The notes beneath the pieces were generated by a model. The model was not told the DNA's origin. It worked only from the letters and a program-made list of their open reading frames with translations, and did not search any database. From the IMG/VR virus record IMGVR_UViG_3300011855_000048, positions 62,001 to 90,091 of that record: a stretch of 28,091 nucleotides of DNA; one strand, 5' to 3'. Made by a program: the position numbers and the translations under genes. This document shows, one piece after another, positions 5,775-28,091 of this stretch (the first letter of the stretch is position 1; each line of letters opens with the position of its first letter). This stretch comes from an uncultured virus (IMG/VR IMGVR_UViG_3300011855_000048) (taxonomy: Duplodnaviria > Heunggongvirae > Uroviricota > Caudoviricetes).

Positions 5775-6527
5775 TTATTTTCGTGGTTCAGGGATCTGCA
5801 CTTCCGACCAGCACTTGCAGTTCGGCAGGCATCCAGCATGGCCAGTCATGCCGTCAAGTGTTGGTGGGTTATCCCAGCGCACGAATTTATTGCGCATTTT
5901 GTAGTGGGAATCTCGGGTGCCAGCGCCCTCGATGCGCCACCAGTAGCCCTCGGAGCCTACCGCCAGCGCGCGGGCTTCCGTCAGCGCCCCAGTAGCGCGG
6001 CCAATCTCCGTTCTGGCTATCAGCTGTGCCCTACTGGCGGCTACGTCGCCGGACTGCATAATCATTTCGTAGAGCTGGTCGGGGCGCTCGCCATTGATAA
6101 CCGCCTCCATCGCGCGGGACTGGATATCCCGAACGCGATCGGCGGCCTCCAGCGGGAGCGACTTCATCAGTTGGACCTGGCGATGAACGATATCCTGCGC
6201 CACGGCGCCGACGGGAGTGTTTCCCACCACGTCGCGCAGGCCGGCGGCTATTTCCTCAGATACGGACCGCCACTGGTTCCACTCCTCGCGCTCAACCTGC
6301 TCAAACATCCGCTGACCGACTTTCTCCGCCCATGAGCTGATTACCTCCGAATAGTCCACCAGCACGCTGGCGGCCTCGTCAGCGCTTGCCTGTGAACCAT
6401 CGTAGGATCCCGCCACGATTTCGCCGATCTGGTTGGCTATCGCCAGTAGGCTCTTTCGGTACTGAGCTTCCGAACGGCGGCGGAGGCTCGGTTTCAGATT
6501 CAGTCTCCTCCCACTGGGTCTTCGCAT
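5775..6527 (-). CDS. Minor head protein (Mu gpF / SPP1 gp7 family)
   Basis: RAQLIARTE, TRDSH, HAGCLPNCKC motifs; GAGG RBS before ATG 6527. Confidence 0.88.
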   Translation of the reverse strand: MRRPSGRRLNLKPSLRRRSEAQYRKSLLAIANQIGEIVAGSYDGSQASADEAASVLVDYSEVISSWAEKVGQRMFEQVEREEWNQWRSVSEEIAAGLRDVVGNTPVGAVAQDIVHRQVQLMKSLPLEAADRVRDIQSRAMEAVINGERPDQLYEMIMQSGDVAASRAQLIARTEIGRATGALTEARALAVGSEGYWWRIEGAGTRDSHYKMRNKFVRWDNPPTLDGMTGHAGCLPNCKCWSEVQIPEPRK

Positions 6528-7830
6528 CTTTTATGTCCTCATCGGAGATACTGGCTCCTATACCGGTCACGTCAGCCATTTCGCGTAAATCAGTCAGCGC
6601 CGCTGCGGGAGACATTCCCAGCTCACGAACCGCGGTCGCCAGTGCGCTGGTGGTGTTCGTTGCGACCGTAGATCGGTCAACGTCACTCATCTGCCAGAGC
6701 GGATTGAACTCGAAGGTAAAATCCTCCGGGAGCGGTTCGCCAAACTCGGAGCGATGCAGCACGTCGAAAAGTAGTCGGACGTGCGGGCGGAGATCCCGCT
6801 CCTGCTGGGTGCCCACGTCGCCGTAGTAATTCGCAAGGTCAGAATCGCCGGTCGAGAAACCCTTGGGGGACTGGCGGAACATCCGGACCAGAGGGATCCC
6901 CACGGCGCCAGCAATATCCTCTTTAAACTCACTGAGCAGATCAGAGAGGCCCGCGAACGAGTAGGAGTGGGTTTCGAACTCGTCCTCAGCATCGAACAGG
7001 GACATGCCCTCGTTGGTCTGAAACTGGCGCACCATATCCATCTGCTTGACGAGCGCCTCAAATGGCTTGCCGCCCATAGCAATGATTTCGCGCAGCTTCT
7101 TGATTTTCGCCGTCCGGAGGTGTGCCTTATAGGCCAACTGCGCGGCACCGACGCTTGTGCTGTCGTAGGACGTCAGGCGGTCGAAAATGCGTTCAACGAC
7201 GGACATGCCCCACTCGTTTTCTGTCACCTTCTGCTGGTGCGGCAGCTTTACGCCATCCATGCGGATCAGCCGGCTGTGGTGCAGGGTCCAGGCAGGCAAC
7301 CCCTGGGCCGTCGTCACGATGTCGTAGAACTCCGGCTTGCCGAGGTTAGGACCTAGCGTTTTAATGCGGCGCGTCAGCTGCGGATTGAGCATCCAGCGGT
7401 CGAGAACTGCCAGCCCCTTAAAGCTCCCCTTACCCACTTTGTCCAGCATCAGTGGCGTCAGCGGTGCCTGGCCTTCAATCAGAATCAGCGCTCCGGCGCT
7501 GCCGTAGAGGCGGGACCACTTCAGCGACTCGTTGAGACCTTCCCACAGCTGAAGCTCTTCGAACTTTGACTCAAGGATTCCCCGGCGTTTAGGGTCGATC
7601 TCGCTGGTGATGCGTACGCCTTTTTTGGTCATATCGTCGGCGATGGCATCCACGGCCACGCCAATTATCCAGGATGAGCGATACGCCCACTCGATAAGCA
7701 GCCGGTTTCGGCTGGTGTAATTTGCCCGGTATGTGGACGCGGCGTGCTGGTTGGGCTGCTGCATTCCGACGCGGGCAACGAAGTTATCGTATGAGTCAGC
7801 AGTAGCGACTTTTTGCTTTCGTGACATCAC
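6379..7830 (-). CDS. Portal protein (DUF1073-like)
   Basis: About 483 aa downstream of terL; YRSSWI...DDMTKKG, WSRLYG, GIPLVRMF, FEFNPLWQMS motifs. Confidence 0.85.
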   Translation of the reverse strand: MMSRKQKVATADSYDNFVARVGMQQPNQHAASTYRANYTSRNRLLIEWAYRSSWIIGVAVDAIADDMTKKGVRITSEIDPKRRGILESKFEELQLWEGLNESLKWSRLYGSAGALILIEGQAPLTPLMLDKVGKGSFKGLAVLDRWMLNPQLTRRIKTLGPNLGKPEFYDIVTTAQGLPAWTLHHSRLIRMDGVKLPHQQKVTENEWGMSVVERIFDRLTSYDSTSVGAAQLAYKAHLRTAKIKKLREIIAMGGKPFEALVKQMDMVRQFQTNEGMSLFDAEDEFETHSYSFAGLSDLLSEFKEDIAGAVGIPLVRMFRQSPKGFSTGDSDLANYYGDVGTQQERDLRPHVRLLFDVLHRSEFGEPLPEDFTFEFNPLWQMSDVDRSTVATNTTSALATAVRELGMSPAAALTDLREMADVTGIGASISDEDIKDAKTQWEETESETEPPPPFGSSVPKEPTGDSQPDRRNRGGILRWFTGKR

Positions 7831-7867
7831 TGACCCCTGCAGAGAAAATTTGAGAAAAAACGGCCCG

Positions 7868-7895
7868 ATTTAACATAATGGTCCTTATGCGCCCT
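7868..7895 (-). other. XerC/XerD recombination core site (dif/psi-like)
   Basis: Minus strand AGGGCGCATAA-GGACCA-TTATGTTAAAT; XerD arm identical to E. coli dif, XerC arm 9/11, 6-bp spacer. Confidence 0.88.
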
Positions 7896-8039
7896 GGCCG
7901 GAGAGCACTCGCCGGCCATACCGCGTGAAAGGCCTGTTTTCATCAGGAAACCAGTAAAAAACGGGTGAATAAAACGTGCATAAACAGGGCCGAAAAATGA
8001 ATAGTGCGTTTTTAGCCTGAATCGGCTGTTTCCGACGAT

Positions 8040-9440
8040 TTAGGCGCGGCCCAGCGCCTCCCAGATATCCAGGGCGGAATCTGTCGGAGCGAACGCCATG
8101 ATGAATGCATCGGCCACGTTCGGCGACGGCACATCGCGCTTCGCCAGGTCCTTTTTACTTTCGACCATCACGCGCCCGTTCTTGTCAAAGTCGCGGTGCG
8201 GTGTAGTCAGCTCCAGCTTGAGCTTTTCCAGCAGCGGGCAGGATGAGTCGATGCTTATCAGCTCGTCGACGGCGTACTGCTCACCGTTATTGATGGCGTT
8301 GAATGTGTTCCGAAAGCGATCCGCCACCAGCCACCAGGCCTGCGCCTTCAGGTTGGCGAAAAAGTCTTTGTTCGGAATATCGTTGTACTCGTTGTCCGGC
8401 TCATGAACAGCGGCACCAGCATTGAATCGCTGATAATTCACCCGGCGGGAGTGAGCGTTCTCCCGGCGCCGGTCCTCATTTATCTCCGAGAACTTGGCGC
8501 CTGCCGACGCCCCCACACCGATCGAGTCGTAGACGATATCCGCGTCGCGCTCCATCGCAGCCTGGTAGGTGCGCTGGCAGCTTTTCAGCAACTCGTCCTC
8601 TTTGGCCTTCCACTCATCCGCCCAGTAGACGACAGAGCCGTGCCGGTAGACGTTGGCGCATTTGTCGGCGCCACTGTCGGCGACGTCGAAACCAAGGCGC
8701 TTGCGGCCGCTGGGATCGAAGTTCAGCTTTTTGTGGGCATCCACCGCCGCCTCTATCCACGACAGCTTGATGATTGCCGCGTCATCGTCTGACTCCGGTA
8801 CGCCCTCATAGACGTGCTTAAAGCCGTCGGGGTCGCGGCGCCGGGCAGCGTCGATCACCTTCAGCATGGTGTCGGACAGAAACGGGTTTTCGTCGTAGTT
8901 GATTTTGCGAATCAGCGTGTCTTCCGGCGGGTCCACAACGAAGTTTCGCCAGACGAAATCGGTCACCAGGCCGGGGTTAAAGATGAACCAGCACTCTGAT
9001 CCTGCTTTACGGATGGTCGGTTCGAGAATCTTCCACTGGTACTCCGTCAGCGCGTGGGCCTCTTCGAGCCAGAGTACGCTGATACCCTCCAGCGATTTTA
9101 TCTCCTCGATATTGCGCCAGAGGCCATAGAAAACGAACTCGGAGCCGGTCACCCGGTTAATGATTTTGTTGTTCAGGATGCGGAATCTGTGCCGCAGGCC
9201 GAACCGGTCAATCTGGATTTTGAGCAGCGTGTAAACCGACTCCTCAATTTTGTTCTGGATTTGACGCGCGCAGCAGAAGCGCAAGGTGTACTTATTTGAC
9301 AGGAATATCGCAATCCCGGCGGCGTCCCACGACTTCGAAGAAGACCGGCCACCGAACAGGATTTTATTACGCGCCTGTGTCGTCCAGAAGTTCCGCAGGA
9401 CCGGATTCAGTGTCGGCCTGGAGGTCAGAGTAGAAGTCAT
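8040..9440 (-). CDS. terL: Terminase large subunit (PBSX-like, probably headful)
   Basis: Walker A GGRSSSKS, Walker B LWLEEA, FNP motif, nuclease GFDVA and SPNVADA; ATG 9440 with GGAG RBS. Confidence 0.93.
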   Translation of the reverse strand: MTSTLTSRPTLNPVLRNFWTTQARNKILFGGRSSSKSWDAAGIAIFLSNKYTLRFCCARQIQNKIEESVYTLLKIQIDRFGLRHRFRILNNKIINRVTGSEFVFYGLWRNIEEIKSLEGISVLWLEEAHALTEYQWKILEPTIRKAGSECWFIFNPGLVTDFVWRNFVVDPPEDTLIRKINYDENPFLSDTMLKVIDAARRRDPDGFKHVYEGVPESDDDAAIIKLSWIEAAVDAHKKLNFDPSGRKRLGFDVADSGADKCANVYRHGSVVYWADEWKAKEDELLKSCQRTYQAAMERDADIVYDSIGVGASAGAKFSEINEDRRRENAHSRRVNYQRFNAGAAVHEPDNEYNDIPNKDFFANLKAQAWWLVADRFRNTFNAINNGEQYAVDELISIDSSCPLLEKLKLELTTPHRDFDKNGRVMVESKKDLAKRDVPSPNVADAFIMAFAPTDSALDIWEALGRA

Positions 9441-10170
9441 TGAGATCACGTTCTCCGTTGCCGTCATCAATGCCAGCATCACGGCGCAGGCGATCCGCTT
9501 CCAGCGATACTTTGTCAGTAGCCGCCACGCGGTAATCGGTGTCGGCAGAGATTTTGCCGACAGTGGCCAGCGTGCCCACGATGGACTCTATGCGTACCGT
9601 GTTGCGCAGCATCGCCTTGTCAGCGGCAACCATAAGCGCCGCCAGCTTATCCCGAACCTCGTCGCTTTCCGCATCCTCAAGCATCGTCTGCCAGCGCCCG
9701 ATGTTCTCAGCAGCGGTCAGGTTGTTGGCCCGGAGCCGGAATAGTTCATCCTCCAGCGTCAGCGCTCTGGCATCTTCGATAACCTCATCTTTCAGCAGGA
9801 GCCGGCGGGCGTAGCCACCGTGCTTGAGAGCGTGCTGGTTGCCAGGCTGGAACGGGGGATGGTTGGTCACTACCTTGCGGCGTGCCGGTTCGGGTTTCGT
9901 ATCTGGAGGCCGTTCGCTTTCTGACTGCGCACCGCTATGCGTACCGCCAGAGCTGGTCGGCTTCGCCGTGGTACGCGGCTTACCCTTATGCGTACCACTC
10001 TGCGTACCGTTTTTGCGTACCTGCGTACCGCCCTTGCGTACCCATCCATCGCGCTTGGCTCTCTTCCTGATTGCCCCTTCAGTGACGCCGTACTGCGCGC
10101 CTATTTCACGGAGGCTCAATGCCCCGGCCCGGTACGCCGTTTCGATGGCCTCCCAGTCCGGTTTTGCCAT
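9367..10170 (-). CDS. terS: Terminase small subunit
   Basis: N-terminal HTH MAKPDWEAIETAYRAG...IRKRAKRDGW; GNQHALKHGGY motif; immediately upstream of terL. Confidence 0.88.
   Translation of the reverse strand: MAKPDWEAIETAYRAGALSLREIGAQYGVTEGAIRKRAKRDGWVRKGGTQVRKNGTQSGTHKGKPRTTAKPTSSGGTHSGAQSESERPPDTKPEPARRKVVTNHPPFQPGNQHALKHGGYARRLLLKDEVIEDARALTLEDELFRLRANNLTAAENIGRWQTMLEDAESDEVRDKLAALMVAADKAMLRNTVRIESIVGTLATVGKISADTDYRVAATDKVSLEADRLRRDAGIDDGNGERDLNDFYSDLQADTESGPAELLDDTGA
9938..10042. repeat. Array of TGCGTACC octamers in terS
   Basis: Direct copies start at 9938, 9989, 10001, 10014, 10022, 10035; inverted GGTACGC at 9970. Confidence 0.9.
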
Positions 10171-11871: not shown

Positions 11872-12120
11872 TCAATCATTCCAATCACTGGTAATGCGAA
11901 GAATCCTTTCTGAAGAATTATTGAACTCATAAACAAAGTCTGCATGGTTAGGATAAGAACTTCCATTAAACCAGACTGTTAGCGTTCCTTTGTGTGGAAA
12001 TTTATCAGTATTAAAGCTGGGATTGATCTCCCTAATGTTTTCTAAATGAGAGTAGTGCTCACGCGCTTTTACGCTAACCTCCTCCCTGGTCTCATAAGGT
12101 ACAGAATCACCTTTAGCCAC
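11872..12120 (-). CDS. AT-rich moron, 82-aa hypothetical protein
   Basis: GTG start; visibly AT-rich relative to flanks; bracketed by terminators. Confidence 0.65.
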   Translation of the reverse strand: MAKGDSVPYETREEVSVKAREHYSHLENIREINPSFNTDKFPHKGTLTVWFNGSSYPNHADFVYEFNNSSERILRITSDWND

Positions 12121-12165
12121 TTAACCATCCCCCGGCAGGAAATTGAGATCTAATTGTATGGCATT

Positions 12166-12198
12166 AAAAATAAAAACCCAAGGCGTTAACTTGGGCTT
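12166..12198 (-). terminator. tR'-like terminator
   Basis: Minus strand CCCAAG-TTAACGC-CTTGGG-TTTTTATTTTT, about 60-80 nt after the PR' start. Confidence 0.75.
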
Positions 12199-12254
12199 GA
12201 AATTTCCTCTAATGCCAATGCGTATAACAGTGGCACAATATCAGATTTACACGA

Positions 12255-12283
12255 AATATATGCCGTTTAATTGATTTTTGCAA
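12255..12283 (-). promoter_or_regulatory. Late promoter PR'
   Basis: TTGCAA-17 bp-TATATT overlapping the end of Q; early transcript carries a -10-like pause element (TATTGT). Confidence 0.75.
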
Positions 12284-12956
12284 TACCCTGCATCGAATTA
12301 GCTGCCTTTTGTTCAGAACGTGATCTTGATACTGATATGAGTGCGTCGCTATCCAGCCTCAAAAATAGCCCGGTCATGGCCCGCCAATGGTCAGCGTAAT
12401 TGTGGCTCCAGTTATCCGGCTTGACGCCCACCAGTGCTGCCAAATCCGCATACTGATACTGCTCGCGCCCCAGCAACCTCGCTTTCACGTCCTGCGCTGC
12501 CAGCCAGATGAGTTGCCGCAGGCGGTCAGTAGTCTTCTTCGCCACCCGCTTCCCCACCAGTTTCTCGCTGAACTGTTCCCATCCCCACCGAGTTATGCTG
12601 ACCTGGTTTTCCCAGCTGGTGTTTTCACTGTAGCTCCACAACAACCACGCTTTGTACTGCTCATCGAGCGACATCAGCGCCCGGCGCCAGGATGCCGTGG
12701 AGTATTCGACCGGCTGCACCAGCGGGATATGCGAGCCTTTAGCGTGCGACTGCTTGCCGGAGATCGGCGGATTATTCAGCGTTATCATTTTCCCGGTCAC
12801 CTCATCCCGTACTCGTAACTTCTTTCGCGGGTAGGTGTTGGTGTCAAACTGCGCGTTCTCCAGCCAGGCCATCAACTGGCCCTTTGTCGCCCCACTCAGG
12901 TCGGCGGTGGCCGTAATCAGCTGCTGGCGAACGTACTCTAAATATTGCTGCGTCAT
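12267..12956 (-). CDS. Q: Late antiterminator Q (phage 82-type)
   Basis: LEYVRQQL...ATADLSGATKGQL, STASWRRA, LIWLAAQDVK motifs; upstream of lysis cassette. Confidence 0.9.
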   Translation of the reverse strand: MTQQYLEYVRQQLITATADLSGATKGQLMAWLENAQFDTNTYPRKKLRVRDEVTGKMITLNNPPISGKQSHAKGSHIPLVQPVEYSTASWRRALMSLDEQYKAWLLWSYSENTSWENQVSITRWGWEQFSEKLVGKRVAKKTTDRLRQLIWLAAQDVKARLLGREQYQYADLAALVGVKPDNWSHNYADHWRAMTGLFLRLDSDALISVSRSRSEQKAANSMQGIAKIN

Positions 12957-14363: not shown

Positions 14364-14702
14364 TCACGATGATAACTTGGTCTCATGCCAGCCAGCTGAC
14401 ACCCAGCACTGCGAGTCGCCAGCGCAGGGGCATGACGTCACCGGCAGCCGCTCTCCGCATTTACCGCAGCAGCGCTTACTCAGCGACTTTATGAGGCCGC
14501 GCACGCGGGCGTCGTCCTGGCGGATTAGCAGGGCTATATACTCCGCAGTGTCGTACGGCGCACGACCTGGGCGCCGTACGGCGCAGTTGCGCGCAAGCAT
14601 CTCCTGCTCCTGTTCGTCAAGAATCAGCTCAAGTTTGCGCTCTCCGGCCGCTGCCTGGCGGGCCCGCTGTGCGGCTTTGCGCTCTGCGGCAGACTTTGCC
14701 AT
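14364..14702 (-). CDS. Phage hypothetical protein with C-terminal Cys cluster (probable Zn/DNA binding)
   Basis: ATG 14702 overlaps MTase stop; MAKSAAERKAAQRARQ...CGKCGERLP...C.C....CW. Confidence 0.75.
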   Translation of the reverse strand: MAKSAAERKAAQRARQAAAGERKLELILDEQEQEMLARNCAVRRPGRAPYDTAEYIALLIRQDDARVRGLIKSLSKRCCGKCGERLPVTSCPCAGDSQCWVSAGWHETKLSS

Positions 14703-16558
14703 TATGCAGCCTCCTGTTTCTGACACAGTTCAGGCAGGTTTGCGCGCACCAGCGCCTCAGCAAACGGCGGCGGCACCGCGTTGCCACAGCGTGCGACCTG
14801 CTTGTCTTTGGCATACTTCACGCCGCGATAATCTTGATCGATGATGTACCAGTCCGGGAATCCCTGCGCCCTGTATAGCTCATGTGGCTGCAGCATACGC
14901 ATTCCGATATCAACGATGCGATACGTCACCCCGTCAATTTCCACCAGCCCCGTCGATTCCGGCCCACAGTATTCACGAAGGAATGCCAGCGCCTGCTGCG
15001 CACGCTGTTCGTCGTAGCCATCCACAGCCAGGCTTGTACTAACCTCGCCAAAATGCGTACCACCAGCGGTTACCGTTTGCAGCGGGGTATCAGTAGGCTG
15101 TCCAATATTGGTGCCGCGCAATTTGATGAGATGCGATGTCACTGCCGCATGATGATCCAATGTCGTCACTGAATGAAATGGCTCATCCATCCGTACGCCG
15201 GGGCCGGTATAATTTCCGCCATAGTGTTTTGCCAGGAATGCCGATACAAGCTGTGATTTACCGCCCCCACCGGCCGTTACCGTAGCGCTGGGTTCATCAG
15301 CCCGGTGGCCGACGCTAGCACCAAACTGCCGGGCGATAACTGGGGCTATAACACACGCGTGGTTCGTATTGCACAGCGTATGCATCGGCTGTTCGGCGCT
15401 GCGCGGTTTTGCGGAGTATTTTGGCCCACCAGCACCAGCGATGAATGGCGCCAGAGCCGCCTCAACCAACCCCAGTGCATGACCATTGCCGCCTGGCCGT
15501 GTGGACGTTCCCGCCGTTACTGTCGGTACAGGCTCTGTGACCGGCTGCCCGGTAGCTCCAGTGCGAAATTTTGTCAGGTGCGGAACAGCTACGGCATAGC
15601 CATGAGTCTTGGTGATGGTCTGCAGTGGCTCCGCCAGCGATTGACCCCGGAAATAGTCGTACGTCCCGCGCGTCGTCGTGTGGTTGCATTTCACGATAAA
15701 CGGCTGAGCGCTGTCGATAACGAACCGCTGAATGCCGCGGGCGATACGCTTGAGCGTGTTTTCCGCCAGTGGGCGTTTGCGGTCGAATATTGACGGCGCC
15801 GGGATGGACCAGTCGATACACTCCGCCGCGGTGCGCCACGGCGCCAGCTTCCCGGCCAGCACCGCCGGTGATTTCGGATCCCCGTGGCTAGCCTCCGGCC
15901 ATACTATCGGCTGCCCGTCTCGGCGCATCACCATAAAAAAACGTTTCCTGATCGTCGGCGCACCGTAGTCGCACGCCCGCAACTCCCGGAAATCTACGTC
16001 ATAGCTCAGCCCGCTAACCAGCCTCTGCGCCTGCTCGCTAGCCGTCGACATCGACAGAAAATCGCAACACTCAACCAGCGCCGGGTGTTCCTCCGGCACG
16101 CCGGTGGTCAGCATTCCAACGAACGCCCGGAACGTCTCTCCCGCGCGAGCCGGGTCAGGGCGCATTTCCGGTGCCAGCAGTGGCCCCCACGTTCTGAACT
16201 CCTCCACGTTCTCCAGCATCATCACGCGCGGCCCCACGTCCAGCGCCCACCGGATTACAATCCACGCCAGGCCCCTGATGGATTTCTCTACCGGCTTAGC
16301 CCCTTTCGCTTTTGAAAAATGGCGGCAATCCGGCGAGAACCACGCCAGCCCCACCGGACGGCCGGCGGTAGCCGCGCGCGGATGAATATCGAATACTGAT
16401 TCGCAATAGTGTAGCGTGTCGGGGTGGTTAGTTGTGTGCATCGCGACCGCGTTAGGGTCATGGTTAATCGCTATATCGACGCTACGGCCGATCGCCATTT
16501 CAATACCGGTGCTGGCCCCGCCGCCGCCGGCAAAATTATCAACGATGATTTCTCTCAC
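14702..16558 (-). CDS. DNA (cytosine-5) methyltransferase
   Basis: Motif I FAGGGG, IV SPDC, VI ENV, VIII RKR, IX QGFP, X GNAV; GTG start at 16558 overlapping upstream stop. Confidence 0.93.
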   Translation of the reverse strand: MREIIVDNFAGGGGASTGIEMAIGRSVDIAINHDPNAVAMHTTNHPDTLHYCESVFDIHPRAATAGRPVGLAWFSPDCRHFSKAKGAKPVEKSIRGLAWIVIRWALDVGPRVMMLENVEEFRTWGPLLAPEMRPDPARAGETFRAFVGMLTTGVPEEHPALVECCDFLSMSTASEQAQRLVSGLSYDVDFRELRACDYGAPTIRKRFFMVMRRDGQPIVWPEASHGDPKSPAVLAGKLAPWRTAAECIDWSIPAPSIFDRKRPLAENTLKRIARGIQRFVIDSAQPFIVKCNHTTTRGTYDYFRGQSLAEPLQTITKTHGYAVAVPHLTKFRTGATGQPVTEPVPTVTAGTSTRPGGNGHALGLVEAALAPFIAGAGGPKYSAKPRSAEQPMHTLCNTNHACVIAPVIARQFGASVGHRADEPSATVTAGGGGKSQLVSAFLAKHYGGNYTGPGVRMDEPFHSVTTLDHHAAVTSHLIKLRGTNIGQPTDTPLQTVTAGGTHFGEVSTSLAVDGYDEQRAQQALAFLREYCGPESTGLVEIDGVTYRIVDIGMRMLQPHELYRAQGFPDWYIIDQDYRGVKYAKDKQVARCGNAVPPPFAEALVRANLPELCQKQEAA

Positions 16559-16815
16559 GCGTATTTCTCCATAGCTGCGGCCAGCGAACGGGCAGCGGCG
16601 ATAATTGACGGTACTGGCATTTTTTCCAGCCACATGCGGTTGATGTGGTGCTGCAGGCGGCGCTGATGGTGCGCAGGTAGACCCCCGGCATTTTCCACCT
16701 GACCGAATACCATGCCCACCTCAGCCGGCCAGACAGTTTCCGGAACATCGGGCAGCAGCAGGCGCTCCAGCTCGGTGATACGCTTGCATGCGTACTCCAG
16801 GGATGGCTCCATCAC
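16555..16815 (-). CDS. Hypothetical phage protein
   Basis: 86 aa, coupled to both neighbours. Confidence 0.7.
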   Translation of the reverse strand: MMEPSLEYACKRITELERLLLPDVPETVWPAEVGMVFGQVENAGGLPAHHQRRLQHHINRMWLEKMPVPSIIAAARSLAAAMEKYA

Positions 16816-26836: not shown

Positions 26837-27061
26837 ATGACCAGAGAAAACGATCTGCTCAATGACGATGAACTGGTAGAACTGACCGGCTACCGCTTCC
26901 AGTCAAAACAGTGCGAGGCATTAGCGCGTGCAGGTATTTCGTTTGTGCGCCGCCGGGATGGCAAGCCGCGCGTGACATGGACGCATGTTAATGCCGCGCT
27001 ATCCGGTATTCAGCAACAGGTAATCGTTGAAGAAGAGCGCCCTAATTTCGACGCAATTTAA
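26837..27061 (+). CDS. xis: Excisionase-like protein (DUF4224-like)
   Basis: LLNDDELVELTGY...Q...L...GI.F..R.DGKPRVTW; AGGAG RBS; directly upstream of int. Confidence 0.8.
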   Translation: MTRENDLLNDDELVELTGYRFQSKQCEALARAGISFVRRRDGKPRVTWTHVNAALSGIQQQVIVEEERPNFDAI

Positions 27062-27062
27062 T

Positions 27063-28091
27063 ATGGGAAGAAAAAGATTAAACCCGGGGGATAATAAGCT
27101 CCCCCCACGCGTTTACGCGAATAAGTACAGCTATTACTACAAGCCTACATCCAAAGAATGCATCACCATCGGCCCCATTACTTTGCCCATATCACAGCTA
27201 TGGGCAAAGTATGAGGCACTGCTGGACGAACAAAGCAACCTGATGACCTTCAGCAAGCTGTGGGGGTTATTTTTAAAGAGTGCGTATTATCTCGACCTCA
27301 AACCACGCACCCAAAAAGACTATTTACAGCACCAGAAAAAATTGCTGGCTGTGTTTGGAAAAATAACGGCTGATAAAATAAAAACGGAGGATATAAGGAA
27401 ATTCATGGATCGCCGAGGAGTACAGAGTAAAACCCAGGCCAATCATGAAATGAGCAGTATGTCGCGCGTTTATCGCTGGGGATATGAGAGGGGTATGGTG
27501 AAGGGGAATCCCTGCCAGGGAGTAAGCAAGTTCAAATCCGTAGCCCGCGGACGTTATATCACCGATGCGGAATACGAAGCCATTTACCAGGAAGGCGATG
27601 CCGTTACCCGCGTGGCGATGGAAATAGCTTACTTGTGTGCGGCCCGGCAGGCTGACGTCCTGGAACTCCAGTGGCGCCAGGTCACTCCGGAGGGAATCTT
27701 TATCCAGCAGGGGAAAAACAGCGTCGCCCAAATCAAGCAGTGGACAGACCGGCTGCGGCAGGCGTTCGAGCTGGCAAAGACCTTCTCTACGCCGAATAAT
27801 GCCGGCTCATGCGTAATTCAGGGTACGCACGGCAGCGGATTTGGTAAGCGGGGATTCAGCCATCACTGGGAGGATGCCAGGCAGAAAGCATCGGTAAAAC
27901 TAGGGTACGCGCTCGACTGCACGTTTCACGATCTGAAAGCTAAGGGGATCTCAGATTACGAAGGTAGCAGTCGGGACAAGCAGCTCTTCAGCGGACATAA
28001 AACTGAGAGTCAGGTACTGGTTTACGACCGCAAAACGAAGGTGTCTCCCACCCTCGACAGGCCATCGATTCAGGAAAAATATTCTAAGTGA
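27063..28091 (+). CDS. int: Tyrosine integrase
   Basis: ATG 27063; AARQAD (R), QGK (K), FHDLKAK, SGH, VYDR (Y). Confidence 0.93.
   Translation: MGRKRLNPGDNKLPPRVYANKYSYYYKPTSKECITIGPITLPISQLWAKYEALLDEQSNLMTFSKLWGLFLKSAYYLDLKPRTQKDYLQHQKKLLAVFGKITADKIKTEDIRKFMDRRGVQSKTQANHEMSSMSRVYRWGYERGMVKGNPCQGVSKFKSVARGRYITDAEYEAIYQEGDAVTRVAMEIAYLCAARQADVLELQWRQVTPEGIFIQQGKNSVAQIKQWTDRLRQAFELAKTFSTPNNAGSCVIQGTHGSGFGKRGFSHHWEDARQKASVKLGYALDCTFHDLKAKGISDYEGSSRDKQLFSGHKTESQVLVYDRKTKVSPTLDRPSIQEKYSK

Follow-up and report, generated by a model that had tools for sequence, protein, structure and literature searches.

A predicted psi-family Xer site in the late operon of a lambdoid-style temperate phage, with a possible role in returning joined phage genomes to single circles

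Among plasmids, Xer sites that carry an accessory arm are textbook material. The closest described examples are psi of pSC101 and cer of ColE1, which combine a dif-like core, accessory DNA and PepA with either ArcA or ArgR, and which recombine only direct repeats on one supercoiled molecule (excerpts of 10.64898/2026.02.23.706985 and PMC5357621), with negative supercoiling favouring psi-type recombination (available part of 10.64898/2026.02.23.706985). Phage use of the Xer machinery appears in the literature searched, as far as the available sections of PMC5357621 go, only for IMEX elements, which are small, lack an integrase and integrate at dif. In the portions of the literature searched, tailed temperate phages were nowhere reported to carry psi-type sites, in agreement with the remark in the first-pass annotation of our locus that such a site was undescribed for lambdoid prophages.

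For reference sequences, the E. coli dif quoted in that annotation is printed in the accessible part of PMC3603311; its last 25 bases are the chromosomal site found in enterobacterial genomes, and three host genomes have a real dif elsewhere. For psi and cer, the cores were taken from the records of pSC101 (GGTGCGCGCAA-GATCCA-TTATGTTAAAC) and ColE1, respectively. The locus compared with them lies in what we call the window—the whole 28,091-nucleotide stretch of DNA analysed, which is the last 28 kb of a 90-kb provirus record—and belongs to a phage we regard as lambdoid-style and temperate because it carries Q, a lysozyme, replication protein O, a CI-like repressor, a RecE-like exonuclease and an integrase. 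The early region also has a minus-strand gene (14702-16633) whose 643-aa product includes a C-5 cytosine DNA methylase domain.

Core and accessory arm of the terL-portal site

A host XerC/XerD site had been proposed in a long non-coding gap between terL and portal, and the sequence is found there, with position and letters as first given: on the minus strand, from 7895 to 7868, it reads AGGGCGCATAA-GGACCA-TTATGTTAAAT, and on the plus strand (7868-7895) ATTTAACATAATGGTCCTTATGCGCCCT (Table 1). Re-deriving the arm counts against E. coli dif gave the same values as the first-pass annotation, 11/11 for the XerD arm and 9/11 for the XerC arm, and its suggestion that the spacer is closer to psi also stands, GGACCA sharing 4/6 bases with the psi spacer GATCCA read from pSC101 vs. 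2/6 with that of dif.

Table 1 Features of the element and its neighbourhood in window coordinates
Feature	Position	Strand	Remarks
Portal	6379-7830	-	Phage_portal_3, E 2.7e-98
terL-portal gap	7831-8039	-	209 bp
Right flank	7831..7867	-	CGGGCCGTTTTTT..CAAATT, then remnant of old terL 3' end and portal ribosome-binding site
Promoter-like TTGAGA-18-CATAAT	7850..7879	+	antisense to late genes; -10 inside XerD arm; reads into accessory arm
Xer core	7868..7895	-	28 bp; exact match to the sequence first annotated
XerD arm TTATGTTAAAT	7878-7868	-	part of Xer core
6-bp central region GGACCA	7884-7879	-	part of Xer core
XerC arm AGGGCGCATAA	7895-7885	-	part of Xer core
Accessory arm, XerC side	7896..8039	-	144 bp beyond XerC arm
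Inverted repeat in accessory arm	7896-7917	-	GAGTG at 7906-7910
Three direct repeats TATkCAy	starts 8003, 7982, 7971	-	spacing 21 and 11 bp
Left-end motif GGAAACAGCCGATTCAGGC	8015-8033	-	common to psi (GAAAyAGC..TTCAG)
terL, large terminase	8040-9482	-	PBSX/Terminase_3 type; Pfam Terminase_3, E 6.5e-39
terS, small terminase	9367-10170	-	PHROG phrog_370, E 5.8e-85
Phage integrase	27027-28091	+	Phage_integrase and SAM-like domains; end of provirus record

When up to 3 mismatches are allowed, the window yields a single hit for the 28-mer and likewise for a version of it with free spacer, vs. 0 matches to the core in 100 dinucleotide-preserving shuffles of the window at the same tolerance (0/100), and a chance match was therefore rejected. 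No second such core is present in the 90-kb provirus record. With a single site, no partner and an integrase of its own (19 kb away, as had been noted), the element is not an IMEX attachment site, a point on which we concur with the first-pass annotation. A degenerate second core at the left end, which would be IMEX-like, was considered by eye and judged to be chance (8/11 in the window, 5/11 in the Klebsiella copy described below). By its sequence, the element is a genuine XerC/XerD-type site, of the kind that plasmids use (psi) and not a copy of dif.

The resemblance to psi extends well beyond the core. The XerC arm of the window is preceded by GGCGAGTG and then 10 bases, a motif and distance found also in pSC101 psi, so that GAGTG plus 10 nt stands ahead of the XerC arm in both; the right flank, kept across lineages, likewise resembles that of psi. 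An nhmmer profile built from four copies (window, L013, L097 and L101) matched pSC101 psi at 6751-6819 (E 3.3e-9, 29 bits), compared with a maximum of 7.8 bits in 200 shuffles, and after addition of a Pantoea ananatis copy (L130) the match covered psi 6638-6814 (E 3.7e-16). ColE1 cer matched the profile weakly and in the core only, its accessory arm being without sequence homology.

Within the accessory arm the element departs from both plasmid sites in its candidate regulator boxes. The psi box, which we take to be an ArcA box, has no counterpart ~100 bp before the window core, where the three TATkCA repeats are found instead. A cer-like ARG box is likewise lacking in the window, where the spacing differs (TGCAC-N5-ATTCA vs. 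TGCAT-N4-ATTCA in cer) and the central region is 6 bp, and none of several regulator boxes compared fitted the TATkCA repeats well. The window contains the components of a plasmid Xer site—an 11-bp XerC arm, a central region in the range of 6-8 bp, an 11-bp XerD arm, and accessory DNA on the ~150-200 bp scale beside the XerC arm, psi-homologous near the core and at the left end. Judged on this homology, the whole 209-bp gap is a psi-family Xer site, with an XerC-side accessory region of ~145 bp.

From the sequence, psi homology, conservation, insertion and spread of the element we infer binding, recombination and a biological role as follows. The 209-bp gap would be a complete psi-family Xer site, acquired as an insertion, that returns joined phage genomes to single circles, a reading we favour tentatively and put a little below an even chance. 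Host XerC and XerD would bind the 28-bp core, while the ~145-bp XerC-side arm would be wrapped by host architectural proteins, PepA and a second factor bound to the phased trio of TATkCA repeats. Strand exchange would then be limited, as it is at psi and cer, to two direct-repeat copies on one molecule, and would proceed without FtsK, so that joined genomes (circular dimers arising from replication or recombination, or tandem copies) would be converted to single circles. The non-dif spacer would prevent reaction with chromosomal dif, and a site inside the late operon could act unhindered for as long as the late genes are not transcribed.

Conservation, insertion and spread among relatives

Scanning relatives for the two arms, as the first-pass annotation had proposed, shows that both are kept while the spacer is free to vary. 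In the Klebsiella phages Mulock, GZ7, ST405-OXA48phi1.2 and PDP110P2, the corresponding gap measures 237 bp and holds the core GGTGCGGGTAA-CAGTCA-TTATGTTAAAT, a Pantoea stewartii prophage has AGGGCGGATAA-CATCTA-TTATGTTAAAT, and a Raoultella prophage AGTGCCGATAA-CGTACA-TTATGGTAAAT. Across these four divergent lineages, the window's included, the arms and the 6-bp spacer length are retained, and the spacer letters differ.

For a finer view, we aligned 58 Klebsiella-clade loci (50 distinct 828-nt segments), chosen by a pattern allowing every core variant seen, with the gap-bearing L028 alone left out. Polymorphic columns numbered 2/11 in the XerC arm, 1/6 in the spacer and 0/11 in the XerD arm, or 3/28 over the whole core, vs. 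116/145 in the accessory arm, 35/65 in the right flank, 220/292 in the terL 3' end and 98/340 in the portal 5' end. The Klebsiella-clade core thus appears to be under purifying selection, with the accessory arm and flanks varying freely. In L028 (~1900-1935), a short deletion took the XerC arm and part of the spacer, and the XerD arm has 1 base altered; this copy is, by the alignment, a decayed site.

Close relatives also reveal how the gap arose. In L008 and L026, whose terL is 92% identical to that of the window, the terL stop abuts the portal start with no gap and no site, and the same holds for L007 (terL 85%) and L006 (77%). To the right of the element, the window and Klebsiella copies retain a short remnant that, by alignment with gap-less relatives, resembles their terL 3' end together with the portal ribosome-binding site. 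In Pantoea stewartii, the terL ahead of the element is a different one (37% identity). On these comparisons, the window gap is an insertion acquired by the phage lineage.

We then searched IMG/VR with a pattern that required GAGTG along with much of the core (the greater part of the XerD arm and portions of the XerC arm), which matched at least 125 viral stretches, of which 80 loci were analysed. These 80 loci, among the matches listed, held 82 sites with 47 distinct cores (two sites were seen twice, in overlapping loci). All 82 sites among the matches listed have 6-bp spacers and none has that of dif, consistent with the earlier suggestion that a non-dif spacer would avoid recombination with chromosomal dif. 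Among the full-length viral-contig copies listed, the repeat block lies exactly 97 bp before the XerC arm in 56/80 and 87 bp before it in 4/80; the window, itself outside the 80, has the 87-bp spacing. The remaining 20/80 copies listed carry TGTTA-N6-TGTTG-type repeats where psi has its box, as does the Pantoea ananatis copy. The two spacings differ by exactly one helical turn, which speaks for protein and DNA forming a phased complex, as has been described for the accessory sequences of psi and cer (excerpts of 10.64898/2026.02.23.706985 and PMC5357621). Taken together, sequence, homology, phasing and selection point to a probably working accessory-arm XerCD site.

Host genomes carry such cores as well. 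A general core pattern gave 104 matches in 71 of 151 Enterobacteriaceae genomes, compared with 4 for a reversed-pattern control, and by hand count ~58 of the 104 were dif and ~46 had other spacers. For instance, the same non-dif core, TGCGCTTAA-CAGCCA-..., occurs three times in one genome (G024; C1:978464, C1:1754266 and C2:1355175), and two of these copies are equally oriented on a single contig at a distance of 776 kb, suggesting that direct-repeat pairs at such a distance are tolerated. In Raoultella lignicola (G002, C104:671278 and 768175), the prophage with the Raoultella copy lies ~97 kb from the chromosomal dif.

The element was also seen in records labelled as plasmids. Five circular K. 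pneumoniae 'plasmid' records in PLSDB (NZ_AP024758.1, NZ_CP095237.1, NZ_CP053366.1, NZ_CP146029.1 and NZ_CP077781.1; L259-L263) carry it, and 5/5 checked are non-mobilizable, integrase-bearing phage copies of 40-42.6 kb; a sixth K. pneumoniae record with the element, NZ_CP076549.1 (L131), is linear. The circular records may represent episomal phage, induced phage or permuted headful DNA, and a plasmid lifestyle is unproven by them because permuted headful DNA and induced phage also assemble as circles.

Given this distribution, the element might be a passenger, that is, a plasmid resolution site captured by recombination that spread with mosaic late modules and persisted harmlessly at gene junctions with no benefit. 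Close relatives do differ in presence or absence of the site, the L028 copy is degenerate, morons occupy the same junctions, and psi-like cores exist on true plasmids too. Such an origin sits badly with the conservation data, however, as the core is far better conserved than adjacent coding DNA, the accessory phasing is exact, and intact arms recur at many independent junctions and lineages, and we think it unlikely.

Another reading starts from what adjoins the site. Plasmids, satellites or cassettes with a matching Xer site could fuse here and ride in capsids, or phages could exchange modules through the core. The XerD side is a frequent place for morons, such as the two-gene moron of L134 (2544-3180; DUF6953 and DUF2158), which is on the opposite strand, adjoins the XerD side and has its own promoter-like and terminator-like signals, or the HicB-like and HTH genes that occupy this side in other loci. 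Identical cores also turn up where the surroundings are unrelated: the 25-base core of the window, with the same spacer, recurs exactly between terS and terL of another prophage in G014 (C1:1963110; L271 1507-1531), and the psi spacer GATCCA was found in a RepA-bearing contig. Against such docking, the record has one site and no second core lies beside the L134 cargo, and accessory arms disfavour reactions between separate molecules (available portion of 10.64898/2026.02.23.706985); we regard it as very improbable. Recent transfer of the element between junctions found no support either, since the G014 accessory arm is of the other, 97-bp class and is unlike the window's in other respects too. 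The return of joined genomes to single circles, our preferred reading, would involve direct repeats on a single molecule.

Transcription signals in and around the element

Besides its recombination-site features, the element contains a promoter-like sequence antisense to the late genes (Table 1), with TTGTTA-18-CATAAT at the homologous place in the Klebsiella copy. This raises the alternative that the site is regulatory, with an XerCD/PepA complex blocking leaky late transcription, or with an antisense RNA from the XerD arm acting on late messages or on the host. There is a parallel in cer, which holds the promoter Pcer, source of the small RNA Rcd (available text of PMC4393325 and PMC5935869).

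We mapped three raw-read RNA runs, from stranded libraries, to the Klebsiella copy L052 (1200-2600; terL stop at 1763, core at 1908-1935, portal start at 2001), with strand assignment assuming the usual library type, an assumption that fits the sense signal over the late genes. Sense depth was 3-16 throughout. In two runs (X21 and X22), antisense depth was 0 in the outer bins and raised only over ~1482-2092 of L052, so that antisense reads were confined to the element, peaking at 10.7 (X21) and 8 (X22) over 1764-1857. This depth falls past 1670, and a terminator-like hairpin lies at 1671-1658 on the antisense strand. The third run, from the same sample as X22, gave a weaker antisense signal, and the reads mapped per run were few (99, 72 and 52).

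An active outward promoter could also explain the uniform direction of the copies, since a flipped element would read into the late genes in the lysogen. On the other side, a -35-like hexamer is present in only 29/78 family copies vs. 19% of shuffled flanks, antisense depth is low, RNAalifold on 9 copies predicted 0 pairs for the antisense strand, and an Rfam search at E up to 10 gave no match within the element and a single hit elsewhere, at chance level. Folding of the sense strand gave an ordinary z-score (-0.75), and the pattern of conserved arms around a variable spacer speaks for DNA recognition by a recombinase. A regulatory role as the main function therefore seems quite improbable to us, and resolution of joined genomes by XerCD remains the reading we prefer.

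Other signals were noted nearby. No intrinsic terminator of terL was found on the coding strand within the gap. Behind Q, the region 12100-12290 (minus strand) contains a promoter-like TTGCAA-17-TATATT, read by eye, and just past Q a strong hairpin with a T run (~12195-12160, minus strand); these are likely the late promoter and tR', and a small ORF (11872-12120) separates them from the lysis genes. An Enterobacter plasmid (pE76_003, CP042502.1; L129) carries the repeat block and GAGTG hairpin behind Q (1500-1625) with no Xer core: the element's left two thirds are followed by two direct repeats GCTCAATTrAAATGwCC. This observation prompted a late promoter/qut reading of the conserved block, which was dropped because Q of the window precedes a different stretch, the promoter-like and terminator signals just described.

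Placement near packaging genes and comparison with known systems

Where the site sits in the late operon bears on its role. We named by Pfam the gene on the accessory side for 80 sites among the matches listed, finding terS in 26/80, terL in 7/80, a Mu-F head gene in 11/80 (one a duplicate locus), the Q antiterminator, which is upstream of terS, in 8/80, a phage metallopeptidase in 4/80, DUF2280 in 1/80, IncFII RepA in 1/80, and a gene without family in 22/80. PHROGs resolved 2 further accessory-side genes among these matches as terS and 4 as a small repressor-like protein, and confirmed 536-567-aa downstream genes as terL; other downstream genes were portal, DUF2213, holin and small morons.

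We also scored 108 portal relatives with full flanks at three junctions—terS|terL, terL|portal and after Mu-F. No site was present at any of these in 44/108 loci, while 41/108 had one at terL|portal only, 10/108 at terL|portal and after Mu-F, 5/108 at terS|terL only, 4/108 at terS|terL and after Mu-F, and 4/108 after Mu-F only. All sites found (78/78) are co-oriented with the late genes. In loci with two sites, the spacers of the pair differ in 14/14 cases, as would be expected if like sites in direct repeat would delete the genes between them. With 44/108 head modules site-less, and the XerC arm lost in L028, the site appears to be dispensable.

P1 Cre-loxP offers a precedent for a recombination site near packaging genes, as it both closes terminally redundant DNA and resolves dimers. 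A loxP-like reading of our element would have host XerCD (with PepA) close injected, terminally redundant headful DNA, with no need for RecA or phage gene expression. Headful DNA is redundant by ~5-10%, a surplus that recombinases must have in order to form circles and on which replication and lysogeny both depend (available part of PMC7290940). An Xer site lying some hundreds or a few thousands of bases past pac would fall inside the terminal redundancy of the first headfuls and so be present as a direct repeat, once at each end of the injected DNA. Later headfuls would be served in the same way by second sites whose spacers differ. The terS, terL and Mu-F neighbours counted above fit this idea, as do the confinement of all 78 sites in portal relatives to the three junctions, the PBSX/Terminase_3-type terminase and Mu-F head gene of the window phage, and the distance of 1.5-2.3 kb between its Xer site and terS, in or near which we think pac is likely placed. 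Two-site phages, with their two distances from terS and unlike spacers, would serve two headful classes.

Several points weigh against circularisation. Psi-type sites favour negatively supercoiled DNA, and injected linear DNA is not supercoiled; the 8/80 listed sites after Q are upstream of terS, and others are in unassigned contexts; pac, packaging direction and redundancy size are assumptions for the window phage; and clustering near pac could reflect shared head-module ancestry, or DNA breaks at pac favouring insertions. We therefore hold closure of injected DNA to be somewhat unlikely. Genome resolution, which we still prefer, has difficulties of its own. Headful and cos phages package concatemers, and cutting multimers to monomers late in infection could hurt. 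The accessory block of the window matches neither the psi box nor a cer-type ARG box, many related head modules do without the site, and identical cores in direct repeat are tolerated in G024, all of which count against this reading. Resolution alone also leaves unexplained the crowding of sites downstream of packaging genes, the two-site phages and the co-orientation of every site, the first two of which fit a loxP-like role, while co-orientation fits an active outward promoter.

Whichever step is served, a conserved and widespread psi-type site in the packaging/head operon implies an unrecognised step in the phage life cycle, in which host XerCD would handle phage DNA; monomerisation, circularisation after injection and antisense-RNA control are the candidates. 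If circularisation were true, it would be a host-powered equivalent of P1 Cre-loxP in temperate headful-packaging enterobacterial phages. For annotation, these results suggest that 'empty' 200-bp gaps in late operons are not mere spacers, and they bear on the exchange of parts between phage and plasmid DNA. Cultured relatives exist in Klebsiella phages Mulock and GZ7; the genome note on Mulock (PMC6856289) makes no mention of packaging, termini, terminase or integrase.

Among known systems, psi (pSC101; XerCD with PepA and ArcA) is the closest: the window site shares its 28-bp core with 6-bp central region, 10/11 bases of the XerD arm and GAGTG with the 10-nt spacing, and it has a similar right flank and left-end motif and an XerC-side accessory region of ~145-165 bp. 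It differs in lying within an integrase-bearing tailed prophage, inside the late operon, and in having three TATkCA repeats in place of an ArcA box and the spacer GGACCA instead of GATCCA. The cer site (ColE1; XerCD with PepA and ArgR) likewise joins a dif-like core to an XerC-side accessory arm and has CATAAT on the reverse strand of its XerD arm, and a transcript running from core into accessory DNA is suggested in the phage element also; cer, however, has an 8-bp central region, another ARG box spacing and no homology in the accessory arm. Compared with Rcd, the phage antisense RNA would be longer and has no conserved fold, the comparison with Pcer being by description.

The site resembles dif in its arms (XerD 11/11, XerC 9/11) but not in its spacer, where 4/6 bases differ (GGACCA vs. 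TGTATA), nor in having an accessory arm and a prophage rather than terminus location, and we would expect it to be FtsK-independent. With loxP-Cre of P1, it shares the character of a phage recombination site near the packaging start, with circle closure and dimer resolution both possible; P1, however, has its own recombinase and a plasmid life, whereas the window phage would borrow XerCD and integrates through its own integrase. Finally, IMEX phages (CTXphi, VGJphi and TLCphi) also exploit host XerCD through a dif-like site (sections available of PMC5357621), but they integrate at dif without an integrase and are flanked by two sites, whereas the window phage has one internal, non-dif site together with an integrase.
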